A DNA stretch of 58,445 bases, filler included, from Sluysia triapertura (lineage: Eukaryota), in assembly GCA_046118255.1 (NCBI GenBank). It is 4 parts of 4 records of this genome, joined end to end, with 100 filler letters (N's around TTAATTAATTAA, not from the genome) between each part and the next. Parts side by side here need not be neighbours in the genome. Positions count along the whole stretch, not along the records: positions 32,151 to 43,382 come from JBJNIA010187069.1; 3 more parts are not named here. One strand, given 5' to 3'. Under the pieces are notes generated by a model that saw only the letters and a program-made list of their open reading frames with translations, did not search any database and was not told the DNA's origin. Both the position numbers and the translations under genes were made by a program. This document shows positions 19,353 through 55,420 of the stretch, piece after piece (within the stretch, counting starts at the first letter, position 1; each line of letters opens with the position of its first letter).

Positions 19353-21591
19353 CAATAATGTTTACCATGTTCAATCCATCACTTTGTATCAGTTTTCTCT
19401 TGATTTTATAGTTCTATAAGTTTCTTACTTATTTCCTGATCCACATTTGGGCAATCCCAACAAATAAAATGATTCGTACATGCATGAGATAGATAATAGT
19501 TTGTTGGGATTGCTCAGCTGTGAATCAGGTTGCTGGTGTTTTATATGAATTATCTTGTACTTAACAGCAAATTACCTGAGGGATCGGTCCACTTAATATA
19601 TACGCGTTATATCAATTCTGGAGACGTATTATTAGGGTTTTGACTCAAAAATTTATATTAAGCTAACTTATTGACCGATGCAACTAAATAAGTTCGATCT
19701 GATTTTTTAAGTTTGGTAATTTTATTAAATTGCACAACCCTATATTAAGGTGTTGTTTCTAAATAGAAAATTATACAACTCCCCTTACTTAGATGTTGTA
19801 TTGAAAAAAATATGTTACGCATATTTCACAACCCTTTTATTAAGGTGTTGTTAAACAAATGAGATTTTAATACCTTATTATGTTGCACCGTTCTTTAAAT
19901 CACTAATGTTTGATTAACTAATGAAATCCGGAAAACAATACTTTATTTAAATTAAGACAACTATAAAACTTATGATAATCGACGAGTAATAAAATTATAA
20001 TAATAATAGCACGTTAAAACAACTCGGCACCTGGTCGGTTATTAATATAAAATTTAATTGAAAGGTTTCCTAACCCTATATTAAGGTGTTGGTACAAAAG
20101 AATATAATTAGTTTGAGTGATATTTTAATATTCCAACTTAGAGTGAATATATGTAAAACTTATATAATAATAAATAACTTTGTAACTGGCTTTGAACTCA
20201 TTTTTGCATCAAACTTGGACATTTAAAATTTTTAGAAATTTTTCTACTGTGTCTAAATTGTTTAATGTTACCCTATTCATACTTACTTTTATCTGCTTTG
20301 TTTAAAATTTTTTCTTTATTAAAATAATTTCTTTTAAATTCTTTCTAAAATAATAATTTTCTTTATAATAATTTAAAATTTTTTCTTAATTCTAAACTAA
20401 ATTATTTAATTTAAACAAAAAACAAAAACTTACATAATTTTCTTTATTTTAATTTTAATATTTAAATTAATTTATATTTTTATCTTTTTAATTTATTTTA
20501 TATTATTTTTATATTTTTATTTTAACTATATAATAATATTTACAATAAAATTTACCATAAAATCAAAAAATATAAAAACATAAAAACATGAATTCTTCAC
20601 AAATTACTTTCCCTTTCGGGAAGATTTGTCCTCCAATTAAAAGATTATTATTATAAATCACATTATTATAAATATTATGTTAGTCTAAAAAAATTCATTA
20701 TTATGAATAATCACATTATTATTAATGTTATGTTATTCTAAATCAACTGAATCACTGTCTTCTTCTAGGAGATAATCGTGGCGGATTAGCACATGTGTCT
20801 TACTTTCGTCGCGGAATTTGAGTGGCGATAACATCCTCAGGTCATTTGATGGCTTGCGTGATGTAAGATGAGTTGTTATCTATTTTTTCATGAATCACTT
20901 TTTATATTAAAATAACAATTATGAATTAAAATTACTTAAAAATTATGAATTAATTTGATTAATTTTAATTAATTAATTTTCAATTCCTCAGTCTCAATTA
21001 TCAAACAGGCCATTTCACAAACACTGAGGAGTTCTCCTATTTCACAGCAATCGCCGTACTCAAGTCATCATCTTTTCATCATTCGAAATATGAAACTCTC
21101 ATCATTTTTTAATTAAAAATTAATTAAAATTCGACTTTGCTCTATATGGATGCTTTCCTCCGATGAACTCAATCAGAACTTATCTTCATCAGAAGGTCTC
21201 TTTAAAACACATGCACTCACAATTACAATTGTAACAAAACATTCCTCATTCAAAAGTTATTGACACAAACATATTTTTTCTTAATTAAGTTAATTAAAAT
21301 TTTTAATTAATTAATTATTTTAACTTATTTAATTCTAAGTTTAAAGGTTTTATTATGGTTATAAAATTGTTAAATACTTTATAAGGTACTCAGGAGGCTA
21401 TAGATGTTTTCTACTTCATTACTCTGATTCATTTTTCTACTTTTATATGTTAAACAATACAAGAAGTAACGGTGAGAAATTTCAAAAAGATACCAAAATT
21501 TACGAAATGACAGAATAAAAAATTTGGAGTATATACTATCGAAAACTCAAATCCTCTCGATCGCGACACTAAATTAGATTAGTATTATAAC

Positions 21592-24176: not shown

Positions 24177-25440
24177 TGTAGTGGCCAACACTCATAATTT
24201 AAAATTAATCAAAATTTCATATGTAATATTCACAAATTAAATTACTCTAAAATCCAATTTTCACAATAATCACACTTTTTACTATCGAACTACACCAACT
24301 CAAACATCAGAAAATTAAAATTCGATATTTACAACACCTCATCAATTCACATATATCAACAATTCAACTAACATTTCAACCATCCATAGCATAACAAACT
24401 TTGTCATTTAACGTCGATTAATTCACAACATTCATTCACCAGATATTTCAACAAACAAATCACAATCACAATATAAAATACACAAATCATAAACATAATA
24501 GCATTATTCTACAACACCAACAACTACCTAGAAACATAGATCATTTCCATCTAAAACCTTAATCACAACACCGACCTAAACCCACTTCATATACACATAT
24601 TCATCATTAACAATTACTCACAATAACATTATAATATATTAAGATTTATTTTGTAATCGTCATTTAAAATTAAATTAACTTCAACCTTCAATAAGCATTT
24701 TAAACCATTAAATCTAATGCATAAATCTTGTTTTCAAATTATAAACCTTTAATAACTTTCAATAAATTAATCTAACATTCTTCATTTTACTTACAACCTA
24801 AACCATTACATCTTTCAAAACAAATTTTAAATAACTTTAAAGAATTCATTATTCGACTGTGAAGCAACAACGATAACCGACATTTACTATGTCTTATTAC
24901 CGTTGCTCCCTCACAGTGTATTATTTGTTTGTTGTTTCTCTATTAATTTCATCATTTTTATATGTAGAACAAGTTAAAAATACAAAGAAAAAGATCGTGT
25001 TGGATTATGTATAAAGAGATTTATGTATTTTATATTTTTACATACATTAATAATCATAATATTTTCGTTGTTATTATTATTATTATTGTGACTATTATTA
25101 TTTCTCATTAAAAATTTAAATCAATTTTGATTGTCGCCATCATCAGTAGTGACATTTCATTAACACCCAATCACAACAAGAAAATGCATATAAGGTCATA
25201 TCAGTTGTGATTGGACAATCAATCATATGCAAAATTTCTGTGCTTTCTCAGTTGGAATTATCAGACAGTATAACACACACCACCCAATCAGATTGATCAC
25301 TGTCTATCTCATTAATTAGTAATCTGATTGGGTGGATAATAAAAAATTTTTTAAAAATACAAAAATTTTTGGCTTACAATAAAAAATCAGACAATAGAGA
25401 AATTGTAGAAAATTGTTTAAAAATTCAATTCTTCTTAAAA
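24177..25440 (+). mobile_element. Cassette U1 5' module: TGTAGTGGCCAAC terminus, C/A-rich arm, hairpin 0, conserved spacer, inverted repeats
   Basis: Collinear homology with 37263-38400, for example AATGCATAAATCTTGTTTTCAA and TCTAACATTCTTCATTT(T/C)ACTTACAAC in both copies. Inverted repeats at 24861-24910, 25167-25214 and 25280-25335. Confidence 0.75.
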
Positions 25441-26700
25441 TGGATAAAGATTTCATTAAACCATGTATTAATATCGATGTAAGACTAATGCAGCTTTCAA
25501 CGCATGTCTTAACAGGCTTTTTATGTCATTTTAATCATTATATGATGAAAGTTGATACAAAACAAAAAGATAAAGAATTTTCTTCGCTATTATAACTTTA
25601 AAAGTGTTAATAATTCTACGATTATGTCAAGAACTAAAGATTTTAAAGTGTACAGTTTGGATTTATCAAAGGAGTCATTTGAAGAATTAAATATTTTTAT
25701 TATTTCTAATCAAGAGTATTAACAGCGATAAGATAGATGATTTATATCCATTTGTATTTGAACCAATTTTCAAGATTAATATAAATTGTTGGAATCGATT
25801 TAAACCAAACCATGAATTCTTAAAATCTCTAATATCAAGAAAGTGGGCCCACCTTCCAAAATCGTTATATTCTAATAATTATAATTATGGTATATATATT
25901 ATGATTCCATTTTGTGTTAGTCATGAAAATAATTTTATATCATCCAGAATGTATATAAATGATCGTTTTTCAATTTTAGTATATTATCATGATAGAAATA
26001 GGTCTAGTTTAATGAGATGTAGTCAATATTCAAATGTGACATTAAAAATGAATCCCATTGATCCGATAACCAAATCATTGCTACATGAATATGAATTTAA
26101 GCATTTAAGAATAGAATCCACTTTAATTAAAACTCCAACAGTAGGAGTTAAACTATTGAAGAATAATGATTTAGTATTCGATAAAGTGGCAAATATACTG
26201 ACAGATCTTCACAAGTTATTCGAAATTGAACATGATAACTGCGACATTAAATTAGCTAATCAGAATATAAATCGATGTTTACTTCTAGTAAATGGTTCTA
26301 CCGAATGCTGAACTTGATTCGAGTTAATCAAATATTAATACTATGGATTCTTAGTCATCCTGGCATAACCTGCGTATTGATAGGCGAAAAGGAATATGAT
26401 TACGAACTGATTTCGTCAAGTAATGTACAACTAACTTTGTTAGTAGAGACTATGACTATGGAAAGAAGCCTTCAATATATTTTGGCAATAAGTAAAGACA
26501 TAAATGCGGTCACAAACAGTTCTTATAAATTTTCACGTAATATTAATTCTGTTAGTTTTGAATTTATTTTTTTTATTTTTATTTTAATTATTTTTTAGTT
26601 AATTTAGGCAAATACAGGACCATAAACTGGCGGCGAATCGCGGTCATTATGATACAATTATTCGTGTTAACCAAAATTTAGAAACCAATTTTCAGGTTCA
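25440..26700 (+). pseudogene. Orphan cargo gene of cassette U1, with several stops and frameshifts
   Basis: Consecutive ORF pieces (25413, 25901, 26275) start about 105 nt after the last hairpin. There is a 48-nt GT-AG intron at 26551-26598. QNRYILIIYNYGIYIM resembles KDRYIVLMFLNPEIYII in the U2 cargo. Confidence 0.5.
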
Positions 26701-27639: not shown

Positions 27640-30600
27640 CAAATAGTAATCTATTAGAAATTAAAACATTTTAAGGTCAACATCATTCTTTCAAGTTAAC
27701 TAATCAAGACTTTTTATAAGGTCACGAACTTTATATAAATAGTAGTTAAGAAACTACTAGAAAAATAATAACAATAGACAATCTGCATCAACATTTTATA
27801 TTACTTCAGCTTTGTTATAATATTGGTCTAACATAGTTTGATTAACCCGACAGAATTTTCTAATTTTTTACAGGATGTTAAATAAATTAATCGTTAGTTA
27901 ATATTTGTTAAGATTCACTTTTTTAAAATAGTGTTGTAAATTAAACGTAAACAATTTTGATAGATTTTTTAATGTTTCCTTTCTTAAAATCAACTTTTAA
28001 AATTTATTATCTCGATTACGAATATTCTCATATACTGTATAACATTTAATTTAAATTAAATTAATTAAATTGTATTACTTTATAGTAATATTCAATTTGA
28101 GTTTTATTTATAAGTCAACATTTATTTTATTACGTATTTTAATAAAATTTATTCAATTCTAGTTTGATCCTTAAACTTTATTTACATAGCTATAAACTCA
28201 TAAAATTGGATGGACTTGTTTTAGAAACCGATTCTACGATCCTTATCACGTAGTTCTTTTTTAATTGCGATCAAATTTAAAATCTTAATATTAAGATCGC
28301 GGAATCTTAGCGCAGTTTAAATTATAAAAGATGTAACTAATAATCTTTGTTGCTCAACTTAATTTTTTAGTCCTTTAACTACAAACATCTTTATAACGAC
28401 GAAAGTATCATATTGGATCACCATCTTTATCTTTAATATTGATTATTTCACATTTGAATAAAATTTGATCCAAGTTGGTTTTAACTTAACAGAGACTATC
28501 TAATCTAAATTATATAGTCTCGAATTTTTAAAAATCAATTTCTCTTAGTTTAATACACCGGTTTTAAAATCGGTCGTAAATATATTTTTGGTAGATCTTG
28601 TTTAAAGAGAATCGAATACAAAATAAAACAAAACTAATCTTGCTTAAAAGCGGAATTCTAAAATCTCCAGCATTTAATTTTAATTTATCGCGTAACTTCA
28701 AAAATAATCCACATATTTTTGTTAAGCAACCACTCTTAATCTAAGATTTAATTTTACTACTCAATTCAGTGAATAAAATATTATCAGTACTATAAAAAGG
28801 TGTATCTTAGATTAAACTATTTTTACCATAAGCTTTTGTTCAAGTTGAATTTTAAATCCTACGGACTAGCTCTTAAGTGTGTAAGACCAGGATCGTAGGT
28901 GAATTCATAGCTTTAAAATGATCTGTTTATCGAGTGTCGAAATATTTTAACGTAAAATCCACACAAAATATTTATATTTAGTTCATTTTCTCAGTGACAT
29001 AACGACTACACTTTTCATTGTGAATATTAAGTGCATCTTAATTGAATTTGTTGAAAATTTATTAATTTTCAATAAAAAAAATTTAACTAAATAATAATAT
29101 CACTTTGATTTTATTTAATATTTATAAATAGAATTTTCGTCGTTTTATTACATAATAAAATCAATAAAATGAAATTTTATTGTTTATTTATTACTTTATG
29201 ACAATAATATTTCTGCTCAACATTGAATAGAAGTCATATCTTTAAATAATTAAGATAATATTCACTTATAGTACAGTGTTACGCATTAATAAGATATATG
29301 AATTAAAGTAGAGAAACATTAACGTTCTGTGGTTTGTTTTTATTTAGGATAATGTCTTCAAAAATTGCTACAAATTTAATTTAAAAAATATAAATAAATC
29401 AAAATTAAATCAAATAAACTTATTATTTTTATTGTAGTATAGTGTAATATTTATTTCCATGATTTTGTGATTGTAGGATTCTGGAAATAATTAATAATTA
29501 AATAAATAAAAAATAATTTTAATTTTCAAATGTTTCTAAAATCTATGAAGATTTTGTAATTTCTGCAGCTTATTTACTCTGTTTATGCTTAGGATTTCTC
29601 ACGACCGTGGTTTGATTAAAAGGTTTTCGACTTTTAAAGCCTCAGTTACTTGAGTAGAATTTGTATCGATACTAGCTTTGGATTTTCCTCAACTACGGAC
29701 TTGGTTGATATTTTATATTTTATTGTTATGGAGAACGAAATTAATAATGATTATTTTGAATAGTGTTATTAAGCTTATTAACTCAATATTTTAAAGATTT
29801 TATACACTTTATAATATTACTCAAATATTTTAGATGCTTATTAAGGTGTGGTGGCCCAGCCCACACCTATCTACATATCAAATAATTCATGTACACAAAC
29901 CTCAACACCAAAATTACATCATAACAAATTTTATACATATCACTCACAACATTACACCACTCATCATTATAAAATTACAGATGCCCGGCAAAATTCTTAT
30001 CAACATTTTTAACCAGAATATTAAACTCAGTGTTCATTGCCGTTTTTATTATCATCATGACACGCTACCCTTGTTCTAGTGTCTCCCAATTTTTCATTTT
30101 TATCGTTTTTACGATTTATTGTTGATAAAGTCCATTTAGTCATATTGCTATTGCCTTAGCTTCTTAACGTCCGCACCCAACGAGATTCGAGTGAATGTTA
30201 CTGACGGAGTACTGGGTCAAATATTGCAACTAACGATTTATCAAATAATCCGTACTCGTTACTCGGCCAAATGACTGGTAGAACCAATGCTACAATCGGC
30301 CCAAAACGTTGTTAAAAAATCAACTGAAGCTCTGGTGCAAAGTTTGAGACAATTAAAAAGCGGCCGAAGTAAATCAGTCAGTCAATGTTAAATGTATGAG
30401 TTTGTAATGAAATGTATGAAGATGTTCTAGATGTTTACAATGACAATTCCCTAAACATAATGGAACAAAATGTAAAATTACAAGGAATTCGTAAAAAGTA
30501 TCCAAAAGAAGAAATTGAATCTTTTTGTAAAAAAAGAGATCCTATTTTATCCTCAATCCTATTTAAAAATATTTCGCAGAATCTTTGGAAGATCAATACA

Positions 30601-31665: not shown

Positions 31666-32050
31666 GTAATATGGCATTATCATTTTGAATTTTTTACTTA
31701 TTTTACTGATACCTTCTATGCTAATATAAGTGGTACTGAGATACTCCTCAACGATCATCACGTAATATGACAAGATATTAGTGGAAAACGAGGAGATTAT
31801 GGTGGTAACGGAGACAAGTTTAAAATGGAGTTTAAAATTTTAAAAATTTAATAAATATTGAACATATTAAAAATAAAAATTTAATTAATATTTATGTGAG
31901 AATTAAGTTAAAGAAGTGATAGAATAAAAGTTGATTTGAGATATCGTGAGTTCACCAACGAACTGGACTTACCAGCGAGGGCCAGCCGTTGGATTTTACG
32001 TAAATAAAAAGATATCTAAAGCCTTGAAAATTTAACAATTTTCTAACTAT

Positions 32051-32150
32051 NNNNNNNNNNNNNNNNNNNNNNNNNNNNNNNNNNNNNNNNNNNNTTAATT
32101 AATTAANNNNNNNNNNNNNNNNNNNNNNNNNNNNNNNNNNNNNNNNNNNN
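32051..32150. other. Artificial contig linker
   Basis: Same 100-nt structure. Confidence 0.95.
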
Positions 32151-32223
32151 GTAGAGCAGTCGGACTGCGCAGACGATGGTCCCGGGTTCGATCCCCGGTC
32201 AGTCCATTTTATGAAGTCTAACA
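32151..32223 (+). tRNA. Second tRNA-Ala-derived copy, 5'-truncated at the contig start
   Basis: GTAGAGCAGTCGGACTGCGCAGACGATGGTCCCGGGTTCGATCCCCGGTCAGTCCA has TGC at the anticodon position. It shares the 3' tail TTTTATGAAGTCTAACA with the copy at 55073-55161. Confidence 0.7.
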
Positions 32224-33520
32224 AAATTAACCCGGCCATTTCATACTATTATAAATATTTTCAATATTTTATTTTATTCTTTTTATCCTTGTTTAAAAAA
32301 TCTTAATTAAAATTTATTATTATTTTTTTTATTTGTTTAAAATCTTAATTAATTAAAAAACAGTCATAATCATAATATAACAAGTATAAATAGGCATTAT
32401 AAAATGATCTAATCACAACTGTTAAACATCACTTTTAATCACAAGTTTATTTAAAAGTTTTTAAACAAGAAATTTCGACCACAAGTTATATAATTCAAGT
32501 TTTGATAACCCAAGTGATAATAATTCAAATTTTAATCACACAAGCTTCGCTTATACAATAATTCTTTGAATACAATTTTAAAGGATAAGTTGATCTGTAA
32601 CCATACCAATTTAAATTAATCTGAACATTTTACTGACAAATTCTTTTCTGTGGACAATCCTTGACTTAAATTTTGATTAATTAATTCGTTAGTTTTTTTG
32701 CGAATTAAGTAACAGTTCTTAAATATTGCATAAAAATATACGTAAATTTTCGTTTACATTTTTTGGGATACCTTTTAAGTTGATAGGAGAGCAAATAATT
32801 AAATTTTTTAAAATAACTAAACATTCAAGGATAATGAGGATAAAATACAATTTTTATATATTGTCATTGCATATTTTATAGTGCTTGCTCGATTTTATTT
32901 ATTAATAGTTAACAATACTTATTGCAAATTTTTTGATAAATTTATTAATTCTTAAATTTTGTTTTATAAGAGATACTTTTCATAATTATTGAAATAGAAG
33001 ATAAATATAACCTTTTTCATCACAATTAAAAAGAATTTTATGAAGTAACAAGTTTTAGAGTTTATAGAAGCCTTAATAAAATAATTATTAAAATTCATTC
33101 AAATTGTAAAACAATTTAAAGGTTTCATTTAATCAAACCACCATTGAAATCTTGGTTCTATTTAATTAAAAAATCAAAATAAATTATTGAACTAAAAATT
33201 AAATAGGTTCTCTTTTTTAATAACCTTAATAAAATATTACAGAGAACCGCAGTAAAATAGTGTTAAACTTTTGGTTTCATTTAGTAAAGAACCATATTAA
33301 TTTTCATTAACATTCAAGATTCATTTTGGTCCGAATTTTAAGAGGATCATAATAATACACTTAATCATAAGATTTAAACATTAATTATTAGGTTTATAAT
33401 AATCTTTATAATATTGAAGGATATAAGTTGAATAAGTGACTAAGAACTTACTCAAGAGTTAAAATAATATATTTAGTGGACCTCTATTAGCTATAAATTG
33501 TTTTTCTAAAAATGCTAAGA

Positions 33521-33975
33521 ACTAGCCGTAACTCGTAAGTCTAGGATCTAGGTGGACTCACTTAATTTTCAAAACATTTTATTGTTATTCATATACATAT
33601 TATTCACAATACTGTATCTCTAAGTTTATTAATATCCTTTATTTGTTTAAATTATATTGTTATAGATCATAGTCAAATTCTATATATTGCCAAAAAATTA
33701 TAAATCATTATTGTTAAACCGAATTTTTTAATAAGTAGAAAAGTATAATAAGTCACGCCGTTTTAAGTATGCGGTAGCAAAATATAATTAAATTTAAATA
33801 ATATTACTTATTCGAGCTCTAACTTTTATCGAGTTAATTTACATTATTTTACCTCCACGTAATAAATTATTGAATTTTAAGAATAACCGTATTTACTAAA
33901 CTTTAATAAATTATTACAATTCCTAATAAGAAGAACTATCAATTAAGCATACAAAGAAAATTTTAAATAAGTACT
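33521..33975 (+). repeat. Second copy of the dispersed AT-rich repeat and motif
   Basis: ACTAGCC...GTAAGTCTAGGATCTAGGTGGACTCAC plus the block homologous to 10020-10265. Confidence 0.7.
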
Positions 33976-34559
33976 AAACTGTTATGGCATTTTTCGATCA
34001 TCACTTATTCATTTCAGTTATCTGCCGTTTTTTCATCATTATTTCGTTATCTTCGATTTCTATTATTGTCTCTTGATTCTCACATTCTTCTCTGTTATTT
34101 CTTCTTGTTGAATATTTGTCTTCGTAATTATTATAGTTTTCTTGTTCCTTACGATTTTTGAACGAAATTACATTTTATCTGTTCTCTGTAGTTGCTATTA
34201 TTTGTTATGTTCATCCAATCTTACTTTCGAATATAAATATTAGTAAATAATTAAAATAAATTAAGAGAAAAAAGGCTTTGTTTGATGAGGTGTATATCGC
34301 CTTTTAAGCCTTTAATAAAGAACAAGTAATTAAGAAGAATATCAAATGGAAATAATGAAAGATCAAAATAACATGGAAAGAGGAATAAGGTCGTTCTGAT
34401 ACTACATAATGTGATAAAACTATCAAGATAATTCAAGATAAAACTATCAAGATATTGACTCTTTTTAATAAAACTACTGTTAAAAAATTTAAAAACATAA
34501 TCTGACTGAAGTCGTTTTATAAACAATGAATCCCTTATGTTTGATCAACTAAGATGAAA

Positions 34560-35330
34560 TAGAAATATAAATATAAAAAGTGCAAGATTCTGATTATGGA
34601 TTTTTCTGAAATATGATTTAAATTACTTAAGTTTAAAGCATGATTTCGAAAAGATGGCTCAGCTAACATACCAAACATTGTTAGACAAGCGAGTCAGATC
34701 CTTGTCATATCATATTTTGTTGCAAAATTTATGATATGTTGGATGTGAGCAGAACTTTTAACTCTGAATGATATATAGAATTAATTAAAGCATCTCTTGA
34801 ATTTTGTATAATTGAAACTTCAGATTTTAAACGAATTCATGGTAATGCTCATCATCACACCCATAAAGATAATACATCTTCAGATATCATGAAAATTTTC
34901 ATAAACAAGATTTTGAGTTGTATGTTACAGTTCCCGATCATATGATAAACTACTTTGGATTTCTGAGTGAAAGAAAACTAAGGAAATGCATGCTTTAGTA
35001 GAACATTGTAATGGCGTTATTATAGCTATCTTAACTAATTTTATAATAGTTTTGTCTTACATAAATATGTAACACTTAACAATTTCATTACTATTGATTT
35101 TAATAAAGTAAGGTAGCAAAATGTGGGTTAATTTTTAGAACGAAAGAAATCAATTTGAATAAATGAAAAGGAAACACTATTGTAATGAATGTATGTCAAT
35201 GATATACGTAATGCACATTGGACCGGAAATGGTTAATAAATTGCTACTTTGCAAGTTGTCATTTTAGAGAACATCATGAAATAATTAACTAAAGTCAAAT
35301 ATATGCACTTCGCATATTTTTTGCAAATTA
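34560..35330 (+). mobile_element. Decayed hAT transposase
   Basis: Broken frames give SKRWLS...ILVISYF and DIRN.../IGPEMVNKLLLCK, resembling the hAT RW motif and the C-terminal dimerisation domain. Confidence 0.4.
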
Positions 35331-35829
35331 TTTAACCGATTAGATCAAAGTGTCGCATAACTTATAACTACCATCGCAACTAAAATAGCAAAAATAAAAA
35401 CAATAAACCGAAATATTTGTTACTGCATTTAAATATATCTTTAATAATTTTTTCCACTTATTTTATTTCAGCGAACTCAAGGATAATGATTTACATTCTT
35501 TTAGTTCAGTATAATTGATGAATTTCTAAAATGATTACCTTAATCGAAATATCGAAATATGACATAGGATGTAGAATAATATAACTAATATTTTAATGAT
35601 ATTAAGATTGTTGGGAGTGATATGGAGTATCAGGGTTCATGTGAACTCCTGATACCAATTTTGTTGTGATAAATTTGGTTTAGGTTGTAATTTCAGAAAT
35701 TTTGGTAATTTATAGTTATATGGAACACAAATGAGCTTCTCATTATGGTATTTTTTTAATAAATAAAGAAAATATCCATTAAATTTTATTTGATTATTAT
35801 TTACGATTAAAAATTGCGTATACTTATTG

Positions 35830-36649
35830 AAATTTTGTTCGAATATAAAATAAAACACATATATAAACTTCTATTTATAAAATTTACAAATATTAAACGT
35901 GTCACCGTTTCCATGTCTTGTTTCACCATCTGAAAGAAAAACATTATTTTTAATATTATTATATTTTGTAAGTGGATTAATTTACTTTATGAAATTTCAA
36001 TGTAAATCTTTTGTCAATACACGTCTCTGTCCTCCGATTAAGACTCTCGGGCAGCTCGTTAATTTCTGATTCGCTGGCCTTATGTGTGTTTCGACACTTA
36101 ACTCCATTCTTCATGCACACTCATGATAATATGCGGAGAATGGGCAAAAGGCGATCACTTTGGTTATGTAATCTTCTTGTCTAGTGACAATTACTTCGTA
36201 ATGATGAGCATTGTTACTTTTGGCTTTTAATCATCCTCTTTGTATTAATTAACATTGATGTTGCCGTCGTCATATTCTTCAACTTTATAATCTTCATCTT
36301 TGTAGTGCTTAGCATTATTGTTATCATCTTTATATTCTTCGAAATTATAATCACCATCTTTATATTGTTTAACATGATTGCTATCATCTTTATATTCCTC
36401 AACATTACCATCTTCATCTTTATAGTGCTTAACATTGTTACTGTCGTCTTTATATTGTTCGACTTTATAATGATCATCTTTATATTCTTCGACATTATAA
36501 TGGTCATCTTTATATTGCTTAACATGGTTGATGACTTCTTTGTATTCTTTGATATTACAATCTTCATCTCTATAGTGTTTAACATCGCTACTGCTATCTT
36601 TATATTGTTCGAGATCAGTACAGCTCACTTCAACTTTATTCGAAAACAT
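35830..36649 (-). pseudogene. Paralog of the acidic-repeat CCCH gene (cargo of cassette U3), disrupted
   Basis: About 12 repeats of a 30-nt unit (VEEYKDDHYK, VKHYKDEDGN...) are followed by a stop at 36245 and frameshifts. Next comes VIAFCPFSAYY/VCMKNGVKCRNTH, homologous to the U4 finger. A 56-nt intron (35985-35930) is followed by ATGGTGAA, as in U4. Confidence 0.7.
36225..36612 (-). repeat. 30-nt coding tandem repeat (about 12-13 copies)
   Basis: CATCTTTATA/CATCTTTGTA recurs every 30 nt on the + strand and encodes YKD(D/E) units on the - strand. Confidence 0.9.
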
Positions 36650-36819
36650 TGTAAGGCTTTGATAGTTTTGATTATGTTTATTAATCGTTAGAAATAATTG
36701 AATAAATTGAAATAAATTGAAATTCGTGAATTAGACAATTGTTTTTTGGTATAAATTTTTATACCAGTACTTTTAGAAATTGAGAATCATTATTTTTGTG
36801 CCTAAAAAGTATTTCGTAT

Positions 36820-37262
36820 CTTGATTGGTTTTCCAACCAAAATCGTTTAGAGGCAATCAGTATGATAACTGTTGGTTGGACAGCCAATACGAGTAGTTAA
36901 TTTATTTCATCAAAATCGACGATTGAGATCATACTGTGATGACAACCATCATCAACAGTGACATGGAATTGTAAATGTAAACCAAAATGTCACTGCTGAT
37001 GATGGAAGTTACTCTGTGATTTTGAGATGCATAAATAAAATTTAAATTAACTTAATTATGTTAAAATGATGATAATAATAATAACAATGAAGTGTTATTA
37101 TTATTATTAATCGAAAAATACATAGATTTCTTTTAAATACTATTTTCACATGAACTTTCTTTGATTTTCTTAATATTTCTGATCATATCTAAATTGTAGA
37201 AGCGAAAGGAACTTGCAGACTTATGGATTTGTAGTGTTGAAGCTTTTTTCATATAGATCTTA
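36820..37262 (-). promoter_or_regulatory. Cassette U3 spacer and double inverted repeat upstream of the CCCH paralog
   Basis: Hairpin 1 arms at 36946-36964 and 36987-37005 match 18/19 (CCATCATCARCAGTGACAT). Hairpin 2 arms are at 36824-36840 and 36872-36888. The spacer 37010-37260 is homologous to about 49070-49310. Confidence 0.7.
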
Positions 37263-38103
37263 TGTAGTGGTCAACACTCATAATTCAAAATTCACTAAAA
37301 TCTCACAACATCTAAATCATAATCACACTCAACATTATCAATTTACAACAGCTCATTCACAAAAATCATAACTCAACCTTCACACAAACTTAACAATAAA
37401 CTCACATGAAATAATACATTTAATATTCCCAAACCCTTCATCTTACACTACATTTCGGCAATCAATATTTAACATTCGAGAACACCATTTAATAGCTTAT
37501 TTTCTTAAACCGAAACACAACCATAGACTAACAACATTAAAATTATAAAAGCATTAAATATCATTTCACAACACCAACAAATATACTTGAAATATAGAAG
37601 GCATTTATTTTACATCTTCGAACCAGTTATAAAATTTCAAACACACCATTCATCAACATAACCATTATCATCATTTTACAACAACATCGTAAATACGTCA
37701 AGATTTATTTTAAATTTAAATAAACTATAACCTTTAACAAGCCTTTCAAACCATTATATTCAATGCATAAATCTTGTTTTCAACTATAAAATTTAAATAA
37801 ATCTCAAGAATTTATTCTAACATTCTTCATTTCACTTACAACTTAAATCATTTCTTTTATCTTCGAAAATAAATTTAATACAGCTCTAAATAAATCAATT
37901 TCAGAAATGAAGCAGCAACGATAACTGAAGCATAGTATACCACGTTACCGTTGTTCCTTCCCATTATACCAATATTTTTTATTTTTCATTTTATTTTATA
38001 TATGTCAGAAATAAAAGAATTCGAAAGAAAAGTTCGTGTCTTTTATTCGAAAAGAATGATTTATGCATTTTTATTGGTAATAATAGTAATAACAACAATA
38101 TTA

Positions 38104-38169
<66 letters not shown>

Positions 38170-38400
38170 ATCATTAAATTAAATTAACAAAATTTTTATC
38201 AACATTCAAATTAGTTGCCGCCATCATCAATATTGACACTTCACAATTCTATTAATGTCAATATTCATGATGGTTAATCATCACAAATTATTACTCTTAA
38301 CCACCCCCCCCCCAATAACGACAGATATTACTGTTTGGAAGTCGTGATTTGATGGCCAACCACAATCGATTTTATATGAGTTAATCTTTAAAACAATTGA
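37263..38400 (+). mobile_element. Cassette U2 5' module
   Basis: Starts TGTAGTGGTCAACACTCATAATT (U1: TGTAGTGGCCAACACTCATAATT). Hairpin 0 at 37909-37960, (ATT)n at about 38100-38165, hairpin 1 at 38221-38273. Confidence 0.75.
38100..38165. repeat. (ATT)n microsatellite within the cassette U2 spacer
   Basis: Near-perfect run; it produces the spurious poly-Leu ORF. Confidence 0.95.
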
Positions 38401-38412
38401 TATAAACTATTA

Positions 38413-39415
38413 ATGTTAGCTATTCCAAAACATTCTAATACACAAAGACTGATAAAAATGATTTCATTTCAACCTAGTCATGGATCGACTTTATCAGAAA
38501 TATTTGATGCTTAAATTTTGAAATCACATTTTTTATTAAAAGCACGAGTTACAGATGAAGTTTTTTTGAAAATTATAAATAAAGACAGCATTGTTTCGAG
38601 CAGAGGAAAGCGTGCTAAACATTGAACCTTCGATGAAAAGTCAGCATTCAATGATTGAAGATATTTGTTTACAGGTTACAGCATTGGCTGATATTAGAAA
38701 TAATGTTTTGATCACATAAAGTCAATATTACATTATGAACGTGAAAATTATTGTGGAAAGATAAATCGTGAGATCGATACATTAATACAGTCAAAGAATC
38801 AAAATAATATCCAAGTAACAAATCCATCACCTCTTAATGTTAAGAGAAATGTCAAAGATCGTTATATTGTGCTAATGTTTTTGAACCCAGAAATATATAT
38901 AATACATGAGTATCTAAGATGGAGCTTTAGAAGTGCATATTATTTGTTTTATCTGATATGGCAACATAAATCAAATTATTATTTGAATCCAACATCAGAA
39001 CAACTTTATGGCGAAATCATTGATAAGACTGCGAAAACATTTTTATTTATAACTAATCTACGTAGATTTATTAAGGAAATTAACAACAATTTGTTATCCT
39101 GTATACGACGCACATCGAGATCAGTAGTAAAGAAATGTACCAGCAAAAGTCTTACGTTTAGTTCGGAAATTCGTAGTCAAGTGTATGATGATGATGATTT
39201 ATGCACAAAAGTACAGTTGCGGTTTACATTAGATCCCGCGTTCAAAACATGTTTATTTGCACTTTGCTTATCGAAGGAATTCTTCAGGATCCTGTTATCT
39301 CATCTTGTAAGACTTGATGTTAAATTTATATTAATTTATATTTTAGATATCAAGTTCAGATTTTGTATCAATGGAAGGTAATGTGGTGCAGTAGTCAAAA
39401 GTGGTTTATTAACTA
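38413..39415 (+). pseudogene. Orphan cargo gene of cassette U2, disrupted in its 5' half
   Basis: An ATG at 38413 follows the hairpins. The frame is interrupted by stops, then continues as the long frame containing ORF 38869-39381, with a 40-nt GT-AG intron at 39307-39346. I recognise no domain. Confidence 0.5.
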
Positions 39416-40109
39416 ATTTTTTTAAAGTTTATTGTAAGGTTTCGGCTTTTTTTACGAAAGTCATAATTTATTATGTAAATTGCTATTTGCTGACTCTAGT
39501 TTACACTAGAGAAAATACCATTTAGATTAGTAAGAGAGAACTTTGTATAAAATTTGTGTTATGTAAAAATTAAATTCAAAGATTAATTCATTCATGAAAT
39601 TAAAATTGTCTACCTTCATTTTGTAACATTCTTTGTATATGATTTTGATACATGTAAAAATTTGAAAGGAGGTCCACTAAGAAGTAATTACTTCGAAACA
39701 AATTTTATACAGTAAACTACAGATTATTAGGAATAATGATGGTGAGGGTCGACACGGATAATCCGCAAAGTAATAATAAAAAATACTAGTATAATACAAA
39801 AACAATGAAAATACATTCAATGTTTTATTAAAAATTGGTAATTTTGGTTTGTTTAAGTGAATTTCTCAATGATTTTAATATCTCGAATTTTTCTTAAAGA
39901 TATTACATCGTTATAGTCGAAGCTCCATTGATCGATATATTCTAGTAAAGTATCGACAGAAGTCAGTGCCGCGTCGTGACTTTTAAGAATTTATGTGTTT
40001 ATAATGATAATAATAATAACATTTTGTTATTATCACTATTTTTAATTTTTATTATTTTTATATTTAATTAAAAAGCCAAAAACCGGATGATTAATTAACT
40101 GGATAACGG

Positions 40110-40287
40110 CCACCATCGGCAGTGACATTTTTCATTTACATCTATAAATTCATGTTACTGTAGATGATGGTTAGCATCACAGTTTAGTTTGCTTGTATGG
40201 TATTTATGTATCTTCTTTAAGTGGCCAACCAACCAGAACAAATATCACAGTGTTTTCTTGTAAACGATTCTGGTTGGATGACCAATC
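40110..40287 (+). promoter_or_regulatory. Cassette U4 double inverted repeat upstream of the CCCH gene
   Basis: CCACCATCGGCAGTGACAT (40110-40128) pairs with ATGTTACTGTAGATGATGG (40152-40170). TGGCCAACCAACCAGAA (40222-40238) pairs with TTCTGGTTGGATGACCA (40268-40284). Confidence 0.7.
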
Positions 40288-40545
40288 AACTATTACAAGT
40301 TCATGTTAAAAATTTTCGTACTCAATTATTAGTATACAATCAAATGAATTAAAAATAAAGCACACAATTACAATTTGTTGGCAGCGATATTATACAAAAA
40401 TTTTAGTCACAATAAAAAATTAAATTGAAAAAGACTTTCTCAATATAAAAGAGCATATTACTCGTAATTCAAACTGAACAATGTATGCTAAAAATTAATA
40501 GTGAAAAATTTTGTCTATTTTAAAGATAAGAATATTAACTAATTG

Positions 40546-41093
40546 ATGTTTGATTCTGAAAATAAATCCATAAACGACAATGATGTTCATAAAGATTATA
40601 AAGATGCTAACAATGAGTTTAAAGACTATAAAGATGATGATTATCAATCTAGCTACTATAAAGATGATGGCCATAAAGTTAAAGATTGTAAAGATGATGA
40701 CAATGAGGTTAAAGACTATAAAAGTGATGATTATAAAGTTGAAGTTTACAAATATGATTATCATGAGGTTAATGGTAGCAAACATGATGATTACGAAGCT
40801 AACATGATTTCCTTTTGTCCATTCGCCACAGATAAATACGGTATATGTGTAAAGAACAGAAATCATTGTCGTTATGCGCATACAGTATACGAATTAGTAT
40901 CCAAGAAAAAGATTGAAACAAGTTGTGGTCATCAATCAGCGAGACTAATCGGACTACTCAGAGGTCTTACAGCACCGACAACTAGCTCGATCGACAGCAA
41001 TTCAACGAAGAATAACCAACAAGTATATGATCCTTTTATTTACATTCATAACATCATGAACTTTCTTTTTAGATGGTGAATATGAAAACCTAG
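40546..41093 (+). CDS. Acidic decapeptide-repeat protein with a CCCH-type zinc finger (cargo of cassette U4); exons 40546-41022 and 41073-41093
   Basis: About 8 degenerate 10-aa repeats (KDYKDDDYQS, KDCKDDDNEV, KDYKSDDYKV...) precede CPFATDKYGICVKNRNHCRYAH (C-x9-C-x6-C-x3-H). A 50-nt GT-AG intron (41023-41072) sits at the same position as in the two paralogs. Confidence 0.7.
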
Positions 41094-41897
41094 AAGGTGT
41101 ATGCAGGATCCAGTCTTTTGAATGTAAACTAATAAATAATAATAAATTTTTCTGTAATTTTTATTTCTTTTTCAATAAACAGAATAAAATCATATATATT
41201 AGTTTTGAAAGTCTAAAAAATAATTTTTTAATAAACACTAATAATATAATATATAAACTTAATAAAAATTATCAATTGAATTTTAAATTTAATTTAATGT
41301 TTAATAATCATCATACAAGAACTTAATTAAACTTAATAACGTATTTCTGTATAGACGCAAGCATTATAGTAAAGTTCAGAAAAATTTTCATAAACTTTCC
41401 ATGAACTTCTTGGTTCAAACTATCAAATTTAGTCCTTAGCAATCTTATTTTAGCATTAGTTTTTAATGATACTTTTAAATTTTTTAGCCAAAACATTTTA
41501 ATTATTTTCTGAACTGTTAAAATTATGCTAATTTTCTTATTTTGTTCCTAAATTTTAGATTGAGAATAATCACTTTTCTCTAACTGTTTTCAATTGTGTA
41601 TTGGCATTCTCGTATTTTAATTGAGACTTAATCTTGCTGCTAACTTTTTAATTCGTTACTATTTTCATTTAGACTAATTTTCTTGAAACTAGTTTAAATG
41701 AATAAGTACTTTCTGAATTATTTAGCAACCATTTTATTTTTAAACAATCTTTTATAATTTTATCTATAATTTATCAATCACATGCACCCATACACTTATA
41801 CTAATATCCTCTGACATAAATATCCAATGAAATGTGTGAATTGGCACTGAGGTAGCCAATTTGGATTTATCGATTGTAAATAAATAAATGCATAATA

Positions 41898-42062
41898 NNN
41901 NNNNNNNNNNNNNNNNNNNNNNNNNNNNNNNNNNNNNNNNNNNNNNNNNNNNNNNNNNNNNNNNNNNNNNNNNNNNNNNNNNNNNNNNNNNNNNNNNNNN
42001 NNNNNNNNNNNNNNNNNNNNNNNNNNNNNNNNNNNNNNNNNNNNNNNNNNNNNNNNNNNNNN
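41898..42062. other. Scaffold gap (165 N)
   Basis: Plain N run without the linker. Confidence 0.95.
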
Positions 42063-43382: not shown

Positions 43383-43482
43383 NNNNNNNNNNNNNNNNNN
43401 NNNNNNNNNNNNNNNNNNNNNNNNNNTTAATTAATTAANNNNNNNNNNNNNNNNNNNNNNNNNNNNNNNNNNNNNNNNNNNN
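43383..43482. other. Artificial contig linker
   Basis: Same 100-nt structure. Confidence 0.95.
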
Positions 43483-48699: not shown

Positions 48700-49845
48700 G
48701 TTTTCGTTTTGTCTTGTTAAATAAATTAGACAGTCTGAATTTTTGTTAATTATATAATCTTTAAAATCGATTTTCTGCTGTTACACACAAATAAAAATTT
48801 GTGTACTTGCGTGTTCCATGATTTGTTATAACAAAAATTTGATGCAAAGAAATCGACCTGATTGGCCGTCCAACCAGAGAAAGATATAAAAATATTGTTG
48901 AGTAATTTGGTTGGACGAACAATAATAGAGATCAAAAATTGTAATATTGGTTTGCGAAATCAATGAGAACAAATGTTGCTTTATGACTGATGAGTGTACA
49001 TCTATCAGTGGTGTCAGTGATTAGCAACATATTTTAATGAAATAGTCACTGATAGTGGTAGTTAGTGGATAAAATTTTACAATTATAATTAAAAATAAAA
49101 TTAATAAAAATTATTAATGGTAATAATAATAACAGCAAAATGCTATTATTATCATTATCCCAAAAATGCATAAACTTTGTATTCTGTAACTTGAACATGA
49201 TCTTTCTTGTAACTCTTATTTTTTTTAAAGATATTAAAGTTGTAGAAGCAATTGAGTCTTAAAGAATTATGAATTTGTGATGTTAAGGCTTTTTAATATA
49301 CATCTTAAATGCTATTTTCTAGTTTTACGTAAAATTTGGATAATTAAGCCTAATGTTCTAAATGAAAATGTTGATAGGTCATAAGTTATTAATATGTTAA
49401 AAGGGTGTAATTTGATGAAAATAAGTTTTAATATGTTCAAGAAGTGATTGTATGATGTTGAAATGTGATAAGTTTGGAGATTTGAAATGTTTTGGGTTAG
49501 TTTTAGGATATGTTTTTGATGGTTTAAGGTGTAAGTTGTAATTCTGGTGTTATAAAATTGTGGATTAGAATGTTTTGAATAAAAATGTTTGTCATAAATT
49601 GTAGCTTAAAAATGTATTAAAATGAAAATAGTTCTAGTGGATCTGAAGAAATAAAATAAAAAAGTTTTGACAGAAAGATGGGTGAAATGTTATGGAATGT
49701 ACAATATGTTAAATTAATTTTAAGTCTTTCAATTTAATTTTTTAAGTGTATGTTTGATGATAAAAACAATTGAAAACATTCTGAAGAATGATTTTATTGT
49801 ATGTTGATGAAATAAAATTATTGGAGTATTGGGTTGGCCACCACA
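48700..49845 (-). mobile_element. Cassette U5 5' module (minus strand)
   Basis: The minus strand begins TGTGGTGGCCAACCC at 49845, then a C/A-rich arm and a spacer (AAGAAAGATCATGT...TTTATGCATTTTT...ATAATAAT...TTATTATT) shared with U1, U2 and U3. Hairpins at 49002-49061 and 48861-48923. Confidence 0.7.
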
Positions 49846-49875
49846 TTAATTTATTCCATGATTAAGTTAGTAACT

Positions 49876-50029
49876 ACCACTACCAGTGGTGACTACATTA
49901 AATTACATTTACAGTCACTGTCACCACTGATAATGGTTCATCTATCAATCAATTCAACAACGATTATTACTGGCTGTCCAACCAGGGCAAACTTTATCAT
50001 TGCTTTTATATATCTCTGGTTGGATACCA
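49876..50029 (+). promoter_or_regulatory. Cassette U6 double inverted repeat
   Basis: ACCACTACCAGTGGTGAC (49876-49893) pairs with GTCACCACTGATAATGGT (49920-49937). TGGCTGTCCAACCAG (49971-49985) pairs with CTGGTTGGATACCA (50016-50029). Confidence 0.7.
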
Positions 50030-50163: not shown

Positions 50164-50675
50164 ATGCATGATTTTTCTCGCTACTTATCAATAACCCTCT
50201 TCAATGATAGAGTCTCAATAAAATTTCAGTATTTAATCCCTTAACATTATTAAAGGATAAAGCAGCTTTGGAGACGATAGAAAAGAATAAAGATGAACTT
50301 AATGATAGTAACAATAATGATATGATATCATCAGATGAATTACAATGTAATTTATGTGAAACTCGTTGGCTATTCAAAACCGACCAAGAAGGAAATTGTA
50401 TCAAATATGGGAGTAGTTGTATGAACTAGTGATTCCTAATGCTGATTTCGTACCGTACATCGATCATTTATCTCGAATCGGAAACATCTTGAGAATTCTT
50501 GAAGAATCAGATTCGAATGTGAGTAAGGACAATGCGAGTATCAATGAACTGAAAGTAATTAATTTTTATACTGATAATAAAGATATTACAATTTATTTTT
50601 TAGATAGCGGAACATATGAGACAAATGCACATTATTCGGGACAGCATTTCTCATAAATATATTTATGTTAAATAA
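50164..50675 (+). pseudogene. Third, diverged paralog of the CCCH cargo family (cassette U6), disrupted
   Basis: An acidic/Asn-rich segment is followed by WLFKTDQEGNCIKYGSSC, a frameshift, then YELV...SRIGNILRIL (compare U4 FATDKYGICVKNRNHC..TVYELV...ARLIGLLRGL). A 49-nt intron (50555-50603) occupies the equivalent position. Confidence 0.55.
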
Positions 50676-52010: not shown

Positions 52011-52955
52011 ATTCAGCTGTAAACTTGTTTCATGGATTATTTGATTGCTAAAAAGCATTAAACGTAACTTGTAGCTATAAAGATTTGTCAAAAAGTGTAA
52101 TTCAGTTATTTAACATTGTTTGAAATGTATAATGCCAAACAATTAATTATAGATAAGTGCAATAGATAGTTTTAAAATAAGATAATATAAATTGTATTGA
52201 ATAACATTTCAAATTTTGAAATCATCTATAGTAACTTTCGTATTTTTATGTATAGTAATCATTACTGTATTAATTTATTTGAAAAATTAGTTTTAAAGTA
52301 AATATATTTTATTATCAGTACACTTTTACATTTAGTAGGTAAAAGTTATTTGAATAATTTAGAACATTTTTGAATAATTCCAAGAAATTTCGAACTCCGA
52401 ATGACGCTAACTTTAAATAACTTTGAAATCACATAATTTTGCATTTCCGAAATGAATTCAAAAGTATTTACAATAACTAAAATTAATACAAGTCTAATGA
52501 TTATCATTCAAGCGTTTCCTACTTGATTATTTTGTGAATAAAATTCTTACATATATAATAACATTTTGTAGTTTAAGAGAAATAAAATAAAGACTAGAGT
52601 ATTAAATAACTTTTAATTACAAATAAAATAACGCACAATCCTAATGTGCCAAGAGACTAGATATGCATATACCTTACATAAAATTACTAATCATTCAAAA
52701 AATTAAATTTTAACACAATAATTTTTATTTTAAATTTTACGAGGTATACGTAATATCATTCGTTATATTCTACCTTTTGGAAAGAATTGACTTTCGCATT
52801 TTAAATGGTTAATATAATATCATACAATTATAAATATACTTTTGTTTAATTTTACAACTCAGTAGGCTTTACAGAATTTTATTTTTATTATATAATATTT
52901 ATGTTTGAAAATTCGAATACAGCGCATTAAAAATTATACACAACTTTCAACATAC

Positions 52956-53774
52956 TTCTTTAATTCCATCTAGAATTAAAATAAATCGGTATCGCTTAGC
53001 TAATTCAGGCCAAATATTAATATCCATATTTATCGTGTTCGAAAAACTGAACACCATCATATCTGCATCTGGCAAGATATCTATACTACTTCGGTTTCCA
53101 AATCTACACTGTTTAAACCACAGGGAAGTTTTGTAACGTTGACACCATGCTCGATCTAATGCATAACTATTAAAGAGTATACATAACTTAAAATATGATA
53201 CATGTATTCTGACCAATGATGACATAAATCCATAGTATAATACACAATTTTTCTAGATTCACAACGGCATTGCAGAAATGCCAGAAAACCAGCAATATCT
53301 GATCCAGGACCTACACCTATACTAATTACTTTGTTTACTTCATTTACTAAATATTTTTCAATTTTTGGATTTTCAGGAATAACTCTTAAAATTAATGCTT
53401 GTATAAACGAAGTTGCACTATTTAAAAACCGATGACGAGCATAAGTGGCTCGAAAGTACTCGTTATCATAATATGATGTCATAAATTCCTTTTTACTCGA
53501 ACGACCTAACAAAAATTATTAAATAAAAATAAATACCCCATTCTTTATATAAGAATATTCCTTTGTTTTTATCATCAGATTTCAAATTTTCCTTAACTAA
53601 AGCATCTACAGGATTATATAATTTAAGTAAAACTGCTGATTCTTGATTTAACAAATGACGCAAATGATCGAATGATTCTACTTTCCAATCAACTTTTTCA
53701 TCTTCAGAAACCTTGCACAAGTATTCCCATAGCTCTTTATTTATATCATCAATTTCACTATCACATTCATTCAT
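52956..53774 (-). CDS. Class I SAM-dependent methyltransferase-like protein; exons 53774-53537, 53505-53202, 53166-52956; last exon not located
   Basis: Three ORF-track pieces join in frame after removing 31-nt (53536-53506) and 35-nt (53201-53167) GT-AG introns: ...LYKEWG/RSSKKEF...YARHRFLN...KVISIGVGPGSDIAGFL...IVYYTMDLCHHWSEYI/YALDRAW...DILPDADMMVFSFS...RFILILDGIKE. VISIGVGPGSD fits the glycine-rich motif I, followed by an acidic residue at the end of the next strand (YTMD). Confidence 0.8.
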
Positions 53775-54704
53775 ATTAAATACTTAATTAAATATAATCA
53801 TTAAAAACATGAAACGAACCTCTTCCAGTAAAAATAGAGTTTAAACAATAAAATCTAAAATGAATTATTTTATTAAGTTATTTTTACCTATTTTATAATT
53901 TTAAATTACTTAAAATGATTTATTAATTTATTATTTCTTAAAAAATAAATTAATTAGTTTTTTATTTATTAATTATTTAAACAAATTATTAAATTTAATG
54001 TTAATAGAATAACGAATAACGAGATTTTAAATAAATGAGTAAAACATTTAGGTCACTTTCTATATGTGCACATTTAAAATTCTAATACATTAAATGTGAT
54101 CTTAATAACACTGCTTTATTAAAATCAATTTTTCTCAGCTAACTTTTATACAATATTTGTACTTTCTTGTGGAATGTTTGGTCGTTTGGAAGGTAACGCA
54201 TTGTAAGACGTATCAATAAACAATAAAGAACAACTTAATTTTGGTTGCTTCCATTTTCCCAAATATGTGAAATTAAAAAAATTGTAATAATTTATTTCAA
54301 ATTAAACGAACTTTTGCATTGCGAAATCAACCTAAAGCCTAAAAGTAAAGTTATTTTATTATCAAAAAATTTTTAAGTATTGAATTTGATGCTGAACATT
54401 AAATTATGTTCAAATGCAAAATGGTTTCCAAATTTAGGAATCCTAAATACTTCTGAAATTTTTCAATATTTATAATAAAATTATTTAAAACTCAAGAAAT
54501 CATCTTAAAAGCTAAGTAAGTCAGATAAAATCTTCAAAAATGGAACCTGAATAGTTTAAATATAAAAAATTAATTGTTGTGCAAATATTTCAAAATTGAA
54601 ATACTATTTCAAGATATGCATTATCATTTTAAAGTGTTCGACAATTTCAAAAGAATTCCTGTCTTGGAATTATCCAAAAATAGTGAGTATTGTGACAAAC
54701 AAAC

Positions 54705-55420
54705 TGTGGTGGCCAACTTTATTATTAAAAATTTTAATACATCACAGTACACTAAAGTTTATAATTTTACAACATCAAAACCATGAATAACATCAAAATA
54801 ATTAAATTTGCTTTTTGAATCTAGTTGGAAAAAGTAAACTAAATGGAATTTCTTTTAACACATTTAACAACGTTGTTACTGTCTTCTTAATCTTCATTAC
54901 ATTTTCACTTTACTTTTATATCACCTCATTTACCTGTAAGAATAGAAAGAGAAATATTTTGAAAAAAGGAAGTGCGGAATTTAAAGAAATTTATGTAAAA
55001 AATTTATCCATTTTTATATTATTGTAATTATTTTATTTTATTTTACATTATTAATTATTATCATCATTATAGTGTTAGACTTCATAAAATGGACTGACCG
55101 GGGATCGAACCCGGGACCTTCGCTGCACAGTTCGAATGCTCCACCACTGAGCTATCAGCCCCGTCTAACGATTCTATTTTATTATAGTCAATTTTACCAA
55201 ATGGCACTTTAGGCCTTTTTACCCCAACAATAGTAATTATTGTCAACTCTGACAGTTTTTATTAAAAATTAATTTAAACTCTGTCAAACAATGACATTTT
55301 TCATTTACTGCCATCGTTTGACAGTTCTTTTTAACTGGAATTTTGTATGGCGACAAAATTAGCTGTCTGTGTATTGGCCATTACTATTTGCTTTGTTCCT
55401 GCTTTAATTGGCCAACGAAT
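54705..55420 (+). mobile_element. Cassette U7 5' module, interrupted by a tRNA-derived element
   Basis: TGTGGTGGCCAAC at 54705 and a spacer AAATTTATCCATTTTT. The hairpin CTGTCAAACAATGACA / TGCCATCGTTTGACAG (55281-55324) contains TGACATTTTTCATTTAC, identical to U4 40123-40139. ATTGGCCA sites at 55373 and 55407. Confidence 0.6.
55090..55161 (-). tRNA. tRNA-Ala-derived pseudogene or SINE head, with a degenerate anticodon arm
   Basis: GGGCTGATAGCTCAGTGGTGGAGCATTCGAACTGTGCAGCGAAGGTCCCGGGTTCGATCCCCGGTCAGTCCA has a 7-bp acceptor stem with G3:U70, an intact D arm/A box, a T arm/B box (GGTTCGATCC) and a TTTT terminator. The anticodon stem does not pair canonically and U33 is absent. Confidence 0.75.

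Follow-up and report, generated by a model that had tools for sequence, protein, structure and literature searches.

Several described systems come close to the repeat family that we describe here. LTRs of the CsRN1 clade of Gypsy/Ty3 (Metaviridae) elements begin with TGTGGYG, much like the TGT(A/G)GTG of our cassette, and they likewise have promoter-like motifs inside the LTR, a G/T-rich tract towards one end and a high copy number; their mean length is 330 bp in the training set of that work, whereas the cassette runs for about 1 kb or more to its hairpins (PMC3601003). The giant Gypsy elements of planarians known as Burro, compared here by description only, share with the cassette an AT-rich animal host, thousands of copies and accessory or captured host-like domains, but no polyprotein sequence was seen and the excerpted account of Burro mentions no LTR hairpin (PMC6431247). 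Template-switch mutation at hairpins leaves compensatory clusters without selection and shares with the cassette clustered complementary changes, mirrored length change, stem-edge duplication and palindrome formation within an arm; in the published studies, however, 4-nt loops are enriched among instantaneous compensations, while cassette loops measure 12-26 nt and show no inversion (PMC8794818, PMC5453318). LTR-mediated retroposition likewise places a host-like fragment, in sense and with no visible intron, directly behind an LTR-like promoter, but the element flanks on both sides and the junction micro-similarity that mark such cases were not seen for the cassette (PMC5131818). The Ginger1 and Ginger2 DNA transposons share its TGT terminus (PMC2836005). 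The processes involved are already known, and our literature search returned no earlier description of the cassette family or its layout. The primary description of Burro, which reportedly includes AAT tracts and AC/TG-biased LTR ends, was outside the scope of that search and may bear on novelty.

The window, a stretch of 58,445 nucleotides from Sluysia triapertura (GCA_046118255.1), comprises four contigs, each 11-19 kb long and separated by spacers (19253-19352, 32051-32150 and 43383-43482), with one other N gap, and has a GC content of 25%. Its ubiquitin-protease exons lie about 15 kb apart and, together with a glycerophosphodiesterase-like piece (match below cut-off), indicate a eukaryote whose introns are long and which is most likely an animal; its base composition and AAT tracts hint weakly at a planarian-like genome. 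The seven cassette copies (U1 to U7; Table 1) follow one order: a TGT(A/G)GTGG terminus, about 600 bp of C/A-rich sequence, hairpin 0 where present (U1 and U2), an AAT/ATT tract, hairpins 1 and 2 and finally a reading frame. U1, U2, U5 and U7 have a terminus of their own; U3, U4 and U6 have none, and the frame behind each of these three is CCCH-finger-like. The alignment of U1 with U2 extends over 911 bp at 67%, and leave-one-out profiles recover six of the seven cores at E<0.001 and U7 only at 0.31.

Table 1 Positions of cassette features along the window
Feature	Position	Strand	Remarks
U1 cassette	24177-25345	(+)	terminus T1, C/A-rich segment, hairpin 0, lone hairpin-1 5' arm
U1 inverted repeats	about 25166-25214; 25280-25335		the former a different repeat; the latter a perfect 15-bp repeat replacing hairpin 2
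U1 downstream myotubularin-related (MTMR9-like) fragment	25625-26110	(+)	
U2 terminus T2, TGT(A/G)GTGG, and C/A-rich segment	37263-37900	(+)	abuts truncated U3 head-to-head; high-copy in sequencing run X1
U2 hairpin 0	37905-37962	(+)	U1 homologue at 24856-24917
U2 hairpin 1	38221-38273; arms start 38221 / 38256	(+)	17-nt loop
U2 downstream open frame	38704-39381	(+)	no Pfam or Atlas family
U3 hairpin 1	36946-37005; arms 36987-37005 / 36946-36964	(-)	22-nt loop; 19-bp arms, 18 Watson-Crick pairs and 1 G-T on the ORF strand
U3 hairpin 2	36824-36888	(-)	two TTGG-N4-CCAA palindromic sites (CCAAT-like), spacers unmirrored
U3 (AAT)n/(ATT)n inverted repeat	37064-37110		low complexity; also upstream of hairpin 1 in U1, U2, U4 and U5
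U3 downstream ORF	36245-36649	(-)	acidic decapeptide repeats; ends before the CCCH-like part
U4 hairpin 1	40110-40170; arms start 40110 / 40152	(+)	23-nt loop; 15 of 19 stem pairs Watson-Crick, 2 G-T
U4 hairpin 2	40217-40289	(+)	
U4 downstream ORF	40546-41079	(+)	decapeptide repeats and UNK-like CCCH zinc finger
U5 cassette	48850-49845	(-)	terminus T5 (49845), C/A-rich segment, hairpins 1 and 2
U5 hairpin 1	about 48999-49058	(-)	3-nt deletion in 5' arm, unmirrored
U5 hairpin 2	48861-48923	(-)	
U6 truncated copy	begins about 30 bp from T5		head-to-head with T5
U6 hairpin 1	49876-49937; arms start 49876 / 49920	(+)	26-nt loop
U7 cassette	54705-55430	(+)	terminus T7, third palindromic site, hairpin 1, short hairpin 2
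U7 hairpin 1	55281-55324; arms start 55281 / 55309	(+)	12-nt loop
Terminus T8	29847-29990	(+)	TGT end, C/A-rich interior
Further TGT terminus	23633	(-)	
Further TGT terminus	8018	(+)	

Compared with the CsRN1 Gypsy integrase motif TGTGGYG, three of the seven termini match exactly and four with one mismatch; no hairpin-1 match at E<0.1 follows T8 or the termini at 23633 and 8018. From its sequence, the cassette resembles an LTR end in the way it would act and is a candidate LTR. It differs from CsRN1-clade LTRs in its row of four inverted repeats and in what was looked for and not found in the window. No second end (matching CA, direct repeats or target-site duplication) was identified in the four contigs; a CA at about 27257 was discarded, being by inspection the intron acceptor of a minus-strand exon and having no target duplication. 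Beside the seven ends we found neither a primer-binding site nor a polypurine tract (longest purine run at most 4 in all seven outer flanks, other-strand TGG in one), both of which host-junction ends and solo LTRs would lack too, and no Pfam match to gag or pol (RT, RNase H, integrase) was obtained among 19 ORFs and 37 frames picked from 219. A Helitron end was rejected by eye for want of a CTRR end, and the idea that the C/A-rich spacer is inverted between the U2/U3 and U5/U6 pairs was dropped, the layout being the same in both.

At two places, U3/T2 (36946-37263) and U6/T5 (49845-49876), a truncated copy that carries a hairpin meets a TGT end head-to-head, and the distance between them varies. 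In X1, the one sequencing run that contains the region and that is possibly the assembly's own source and so not independent, three contigs join U3-side positions 36726, 37085 and 37110 to 37262-37263, with short sides of 21-29 letters at 80% likeness, and no tandem join to a terminus is among the X1 joints listed. The head-to-head abutments may reflect orientation-biased self-targeting. The termini at 23633 and 24177 face away from each other, 543 bp apart. By eye, 39880-40005 is like the region upstream in U3 and U5, inverted relative to U4 and joined at the AAT/ATT palindrome, and is possibly a fold-back junction.

Hairpin 1 very probably belongs to a high-copy mobile repeat. At 80% likeness, 3899 X1 contigs were placed on 36600-38070. 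Against a depth of about 20 for a unique contig, summed depth, which is not equal to copy number, is 8751 over hairpin 1 and about 1000-1600 over hairpin 2, and it rises to 32,000-42,000 at the terminus and to as much as 189,000 within the C/A-rich segment, a scale that points to hundreds to thousands of cassette copies. The highest X1 peak (126,000-189,000), far above the hairpins, lies at 37750-37850, which is either the best conserved or the most often repeated segment of the family. Because the hairpin-1 bin is 7-9 times deeper than the flanking bins (1300 and 973), some constraint on hairpin 1 is likely. Of 203 X1 variants 40 are listed, and among those listed the loop has two and the arms have none.

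All ten arm strings quoted in the initial annotation are present, each once and at the places claimed, and its loop lengths of about 12-26 nt agree with those that we measured in U3, U2, U4, U6 and U7 (Table 1). The span that it gave, 36824-37005, covers two inverted repeats of U3, hairpin 1 and hairpin 2. A scan across the window found ten hairpins, nine of them in the cassette, whereas 25 local dinucleotide shuffles averaged 0.2 (at most 2). The hairpin-1 stem is kept in five of the seven copies and broken in U5 and in U1, which retains the 5' arm (25137-25155) and has lost its partner; in U1 the corresponding places are taken by new stems that differ in sequence, one being perfect across 15 bp. 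The loop has the same orientation in every copy and is never inverted, and its motif CATT(T/A) is kept in six of seven; in two of seven it contains the strict initiator TCAKTY. Folding z-scores range from -3.1 to -7.8 across the five intact copies and are better for the ORF strand in three copies, for the opposite strand in three and tied in one. On the ORF strand, ten stems with 183 pairs hold 4 G-T, 12 A-C and 7 other mismatches, and over the same stems the G/T-rich strand has 12 G-U pairs versus 4 on the ORF strand, a comparison confounded by strand bias.

The claim that pairing is conserved across copies by compensatory change holds in part: the arms co-vary beyond chance, but the changes come down to about three events and do not show selection on an RNA stem. 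Within copies, mismatches over 18 aligned pairs number 1, 4, 1, 3 and 4 (mean 2.6) versus 6.95 across copies, and the natural pairing of 5' and 3' arms is the best of 120 permutations of the five paired copies. A covariance model built from four window copies (U3, U4, U2 and U6) finds U7, absent from training, at E=7e-4. In the alignment of the same four copies in register (U5 and U7, out of register in the MAFFT alignment, were left out of this count), two-sided changes affect four pairs and five cells; 8 of 500 shuffles reach the former and 3 of 500 the latter, a significance inflated by the relatedness of the copies, and sliding the partners gives at most two two-sided cells. The changes group in about three clusters, in U2 (columns 11 and 13 two-sided, column 10 a one-sided repair), U6 (columns 5, 11 and 12) and U7 (a 5-nt spacer in both arms), rather than in many independent columns, and U5 and U6 have a duplicated stem edge in common. 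Seven of the 18 stem pairs are invariant. Column 10 occurs as G-C, G-U and A-U, with G-U common to U3 and U4, and a mismatch at column 4, common to U4 and U6, favours the opposite strand from column 10.

The design of the arms bears on how these changes are read. Each hairpin-1 arm is a self-palindromic site, YRTCA-N4-TGAYR, and four of the five two-sided cells fall within its 4-nt spacer while the half-sites are nearly fixed. The U2 spacer is self-complementary, so its change could have arisen by direct copying, and the new spacer makes the arm more self-palindromic. Six YRTCA-N4-TGAYR sites occur in the window, all in cassettes, versus 1.3 expected, and four TTGG-N4-CCAA sites, again all in cassettes, versus 0.4 expected, both enrichments being partly circular in that the motifs were derived from the same copies. 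CCAAT occurs 12 times per 1846 bp of cassette zones, as chosen by us, versus 83 times per 56599 bp elsewhere. Hairpin 2 is built like hairpin 1, yet its spacers are mostly unmirrored, and their lack of mirroring in U3 and U4 means that paired palindromic sites alone can yield a hairpin-like repeat. U7 has a third palindromic site, at about 55240-55255, with an unrelated spacer.

Altogether, the model that we tentatively prefer, at a little under an even chance, is that hairpin 1 is a pair of inverted sites to which a protein would bind, that it lies in the promoter of an abundant LTR-like retroelement and that template switching mirrors its arms. In this model, the cassette would be a Gypsy-type LTR or LTR-like end that drives the frame following it, including captured host mRNA fragments. 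Selection would act on DNA motifs, namely the half-sites with their TGAC core and, in hairpin 2, the CCAAT-like sites, and would leave the 4-nt spacer free. Inverted sites 28-44 bp apart might then fold back while single-stranded during replication or reverse transcription, and a template switch could write several complementary changes in one go, making the hairpin the route of arm mirroring and not necessarily the selected function. Support for template switching comes from the clustered changes in U2, U6 and U7 and from the stem-edge duplication in U5 and U6, which match known template-switch patterns. Arm homogenisation, which the initial annotation put forward as an alternative, fits the pattern at least as well as RNA selection does. 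Against our preferred model, the mismatches at column 10 (U3, U4) and column 4 (U4, U6) in diverged copies show that copying was not frequent or complete, the rebuilding of stems of other sequence at the same places in U1 and U7 suggests selection for the stem itself, the three states of column 10 are the classic RNA route, and the loop has one orientation throughout. The evidence base is five readable paired copies, and protein binding and promoter activity are predicted.

In the main rival model, compensatory selection would keep hairpin 1 as an RNA stem-loop that acts like TAR or a poly(A) hairpin in the leader or the R region of the transcript made from the element. The likelier strand would then be the G/T-rich one, on which the CCAAT-like sites come first, followed by the hairpin, the G/T-rich tract and an ACA end; this order of CCAAT, hairpin, GT-rich tract and CA fits the LTR layout described in PMC3601003. 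The strong folds of the five intact copies, the passage of column 10 through a G-U state, the 12 G-U pairs on the strand opposite to the ORF and the replacement of the lost U1 stems all agree with such a stem-loop, and of the initial annotation's case for RNA selection the co-variation of the arms and a likely constraint stand. The case is weakened by the grouping of the changes in about three clusters concentrated in the spacer, by the mostly unmirrored hairpin 2, by the 3:3:1 split of z-scores between strands and by the two of seven copies in which the stem is broken. The A-C excess is equally expected from the bias of a G-poor, C-rich strand, and some of the mismatches are inherited. Moreover, transcription starting at the strict TCAKTY in the loop (two of seven copies) would leave the 5' arm untranscribed, so that the RNA stem could not form. 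We regard an RNA stem-loop as somewhat unlikely. Small-RNA precursors, miRNA- or siRNA-like, fit worst of the proposals in the initial annotation and are extremely unlikely: hairpins of about 60 nt with strong folds would suit them, but the stems of 16-19 bp have large loops, flanking or lower stems differ by copy and strand, the loop motif is conserved whereas the arm spacers change, and only tRNA reaches an Rfam gathering score. The weak match of U2 to the MIR172 model, a plant family, was rejected at 32.9 bits versus a gathering score of 70. We likewise discarded a hammerhead ribozyme of the Penelope, Terminon or retrozyme kind (a loose CUGANGA...GAAA core in 2 of 14 strand-copies, no Rfam match) and a box C/D snoRNA (C and D boxes in 1 of 14 strand-copies, in U3 only), and put down to chance the matches in viral contigs (9 and 2) and metagenomes (0 and 3), 14 loci of 40-60% GC that are little alike beyond the pattern.

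The unclear strand preference would also suit a DNA hairpin or cruciform selected in its own right as a strand-independent signal for replication, reverse transcription or integration. Such a signal is compatible with the four inverted repeats in line per cassette, mostly 35-51 bp between arm starts, and with the truncated copies that meet TGT ends head-to-head at two places in the window and in three X1 contigs, although each X1 joint has just 21-29 letters at 80% likeness to support it. Extrusion of a cruciform is disfavoured by loops of 12-26 nt and by internal mismatches, no enzyme gene was found in the window, and we consider this very doubtful. Alternatively, the cassette could belong to a DNA transposon of a Ginger- or Pack-MULE-like kind and form its long terminal inverted repeat, with palindromic sites that bind the transposase. 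Inward-pointing promoters at captured fragments, as the cassette would have, are typical of Pack elements, and the lack of a primer site or polypurine tract beside any of the seven ends agrees with a DNA element. Ginger termini likewise start TGTNR, but the hairpins lie 580-960 bp from the end versus Ginger TIRs of 40-270 bp (PMC2836005), and neither a short TIR pair nor a transposase was found in the window. The Ginger1 target signature, CCGG or CCGT, is absent from all seven flanks, so that Ginger1 itself was rejected, the MTMR9-like piece is intronless over 135 aa and among the ends in the window no two were seen to face inward as a pair; a DNA transposon is just as improbable as a cruciform. 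A broader scheme, in which the portable promoter cassette of an undescribed giant retroelement would capture host mRNAs and insert head-to-head into other copies of itself, and in which a fold-back of the DNA at hairpin 1 would serve as a signal regardless of strand, with template switching and selection jointly renewing the stem as its sequence changes over time, is speculative and quite unlikely.

The frames after the cassettes are unrelated to each other and often broken. Full cassettes lead into the MTMR9-like fragment, two unknowns and a weak KxDL match. The MTMR9-like fragment aligns over 135 aa in one frame with no intron, amid stops and frame breaks, and its best match is P0001 at 34%. 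The CCCH zinc finger of the U4 ORF matches PF25427 at E=1.2e-6, below the curated cut-off; the U3 and U4 ORFs are paralogous, with a YKDD core in their acidic decapeptide repeats, and a weaker CCCH-like piece follows U6 at 50211-50426. Homologue searches gave no match, with none of eight ORFs in the protein collection and all Atlas leads below 0.9. Facing away from T7, a broken, frame-split ORF at 52950-53783 (-) has a glycine-rich motif, seen by eye, that is suggestive of a SAM-dependent methyltransferase, and no Pfam or PDB match to it was found. Other repeats share the window. Two tRNA-like copies, at 55090-55161 (-), inside the U7 cassette, and 32151-32223 (+), are 92% identical, have an irregular anticodon loop and are possibly a tRNA-derived SINE head or pseudogene. 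A second dispersed repeat lies at 10016-10370 and, inverted, at 33613-33978 (73% identity across 377 bp). The strongest inverted repeat of the window, at 19435-19529 (30-bp arms, 35-nt loop), showed no relation to the cassette in BLAST and profile searches. A long G/T-rich, strand-skewed segment within a ubiquitin-protease intron (10950-12070) has a bias like that of the cassette but lacks the cassette's terminus, and perhaps represents another family.

If the hairpin is an ordinary LTR leader stem-loop, it is of modest interest. Covariation is usually taken as proof of RNA structure, and paired palindromic sites together with template switching can imitate that signal. Given hundreds of copies in a single genome, this family could be used to count one-step versus two-step compensatory change. 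Finally, the cassette looks like a promoter placed before captured host genes, through which new genes may have arisen in this lineage.
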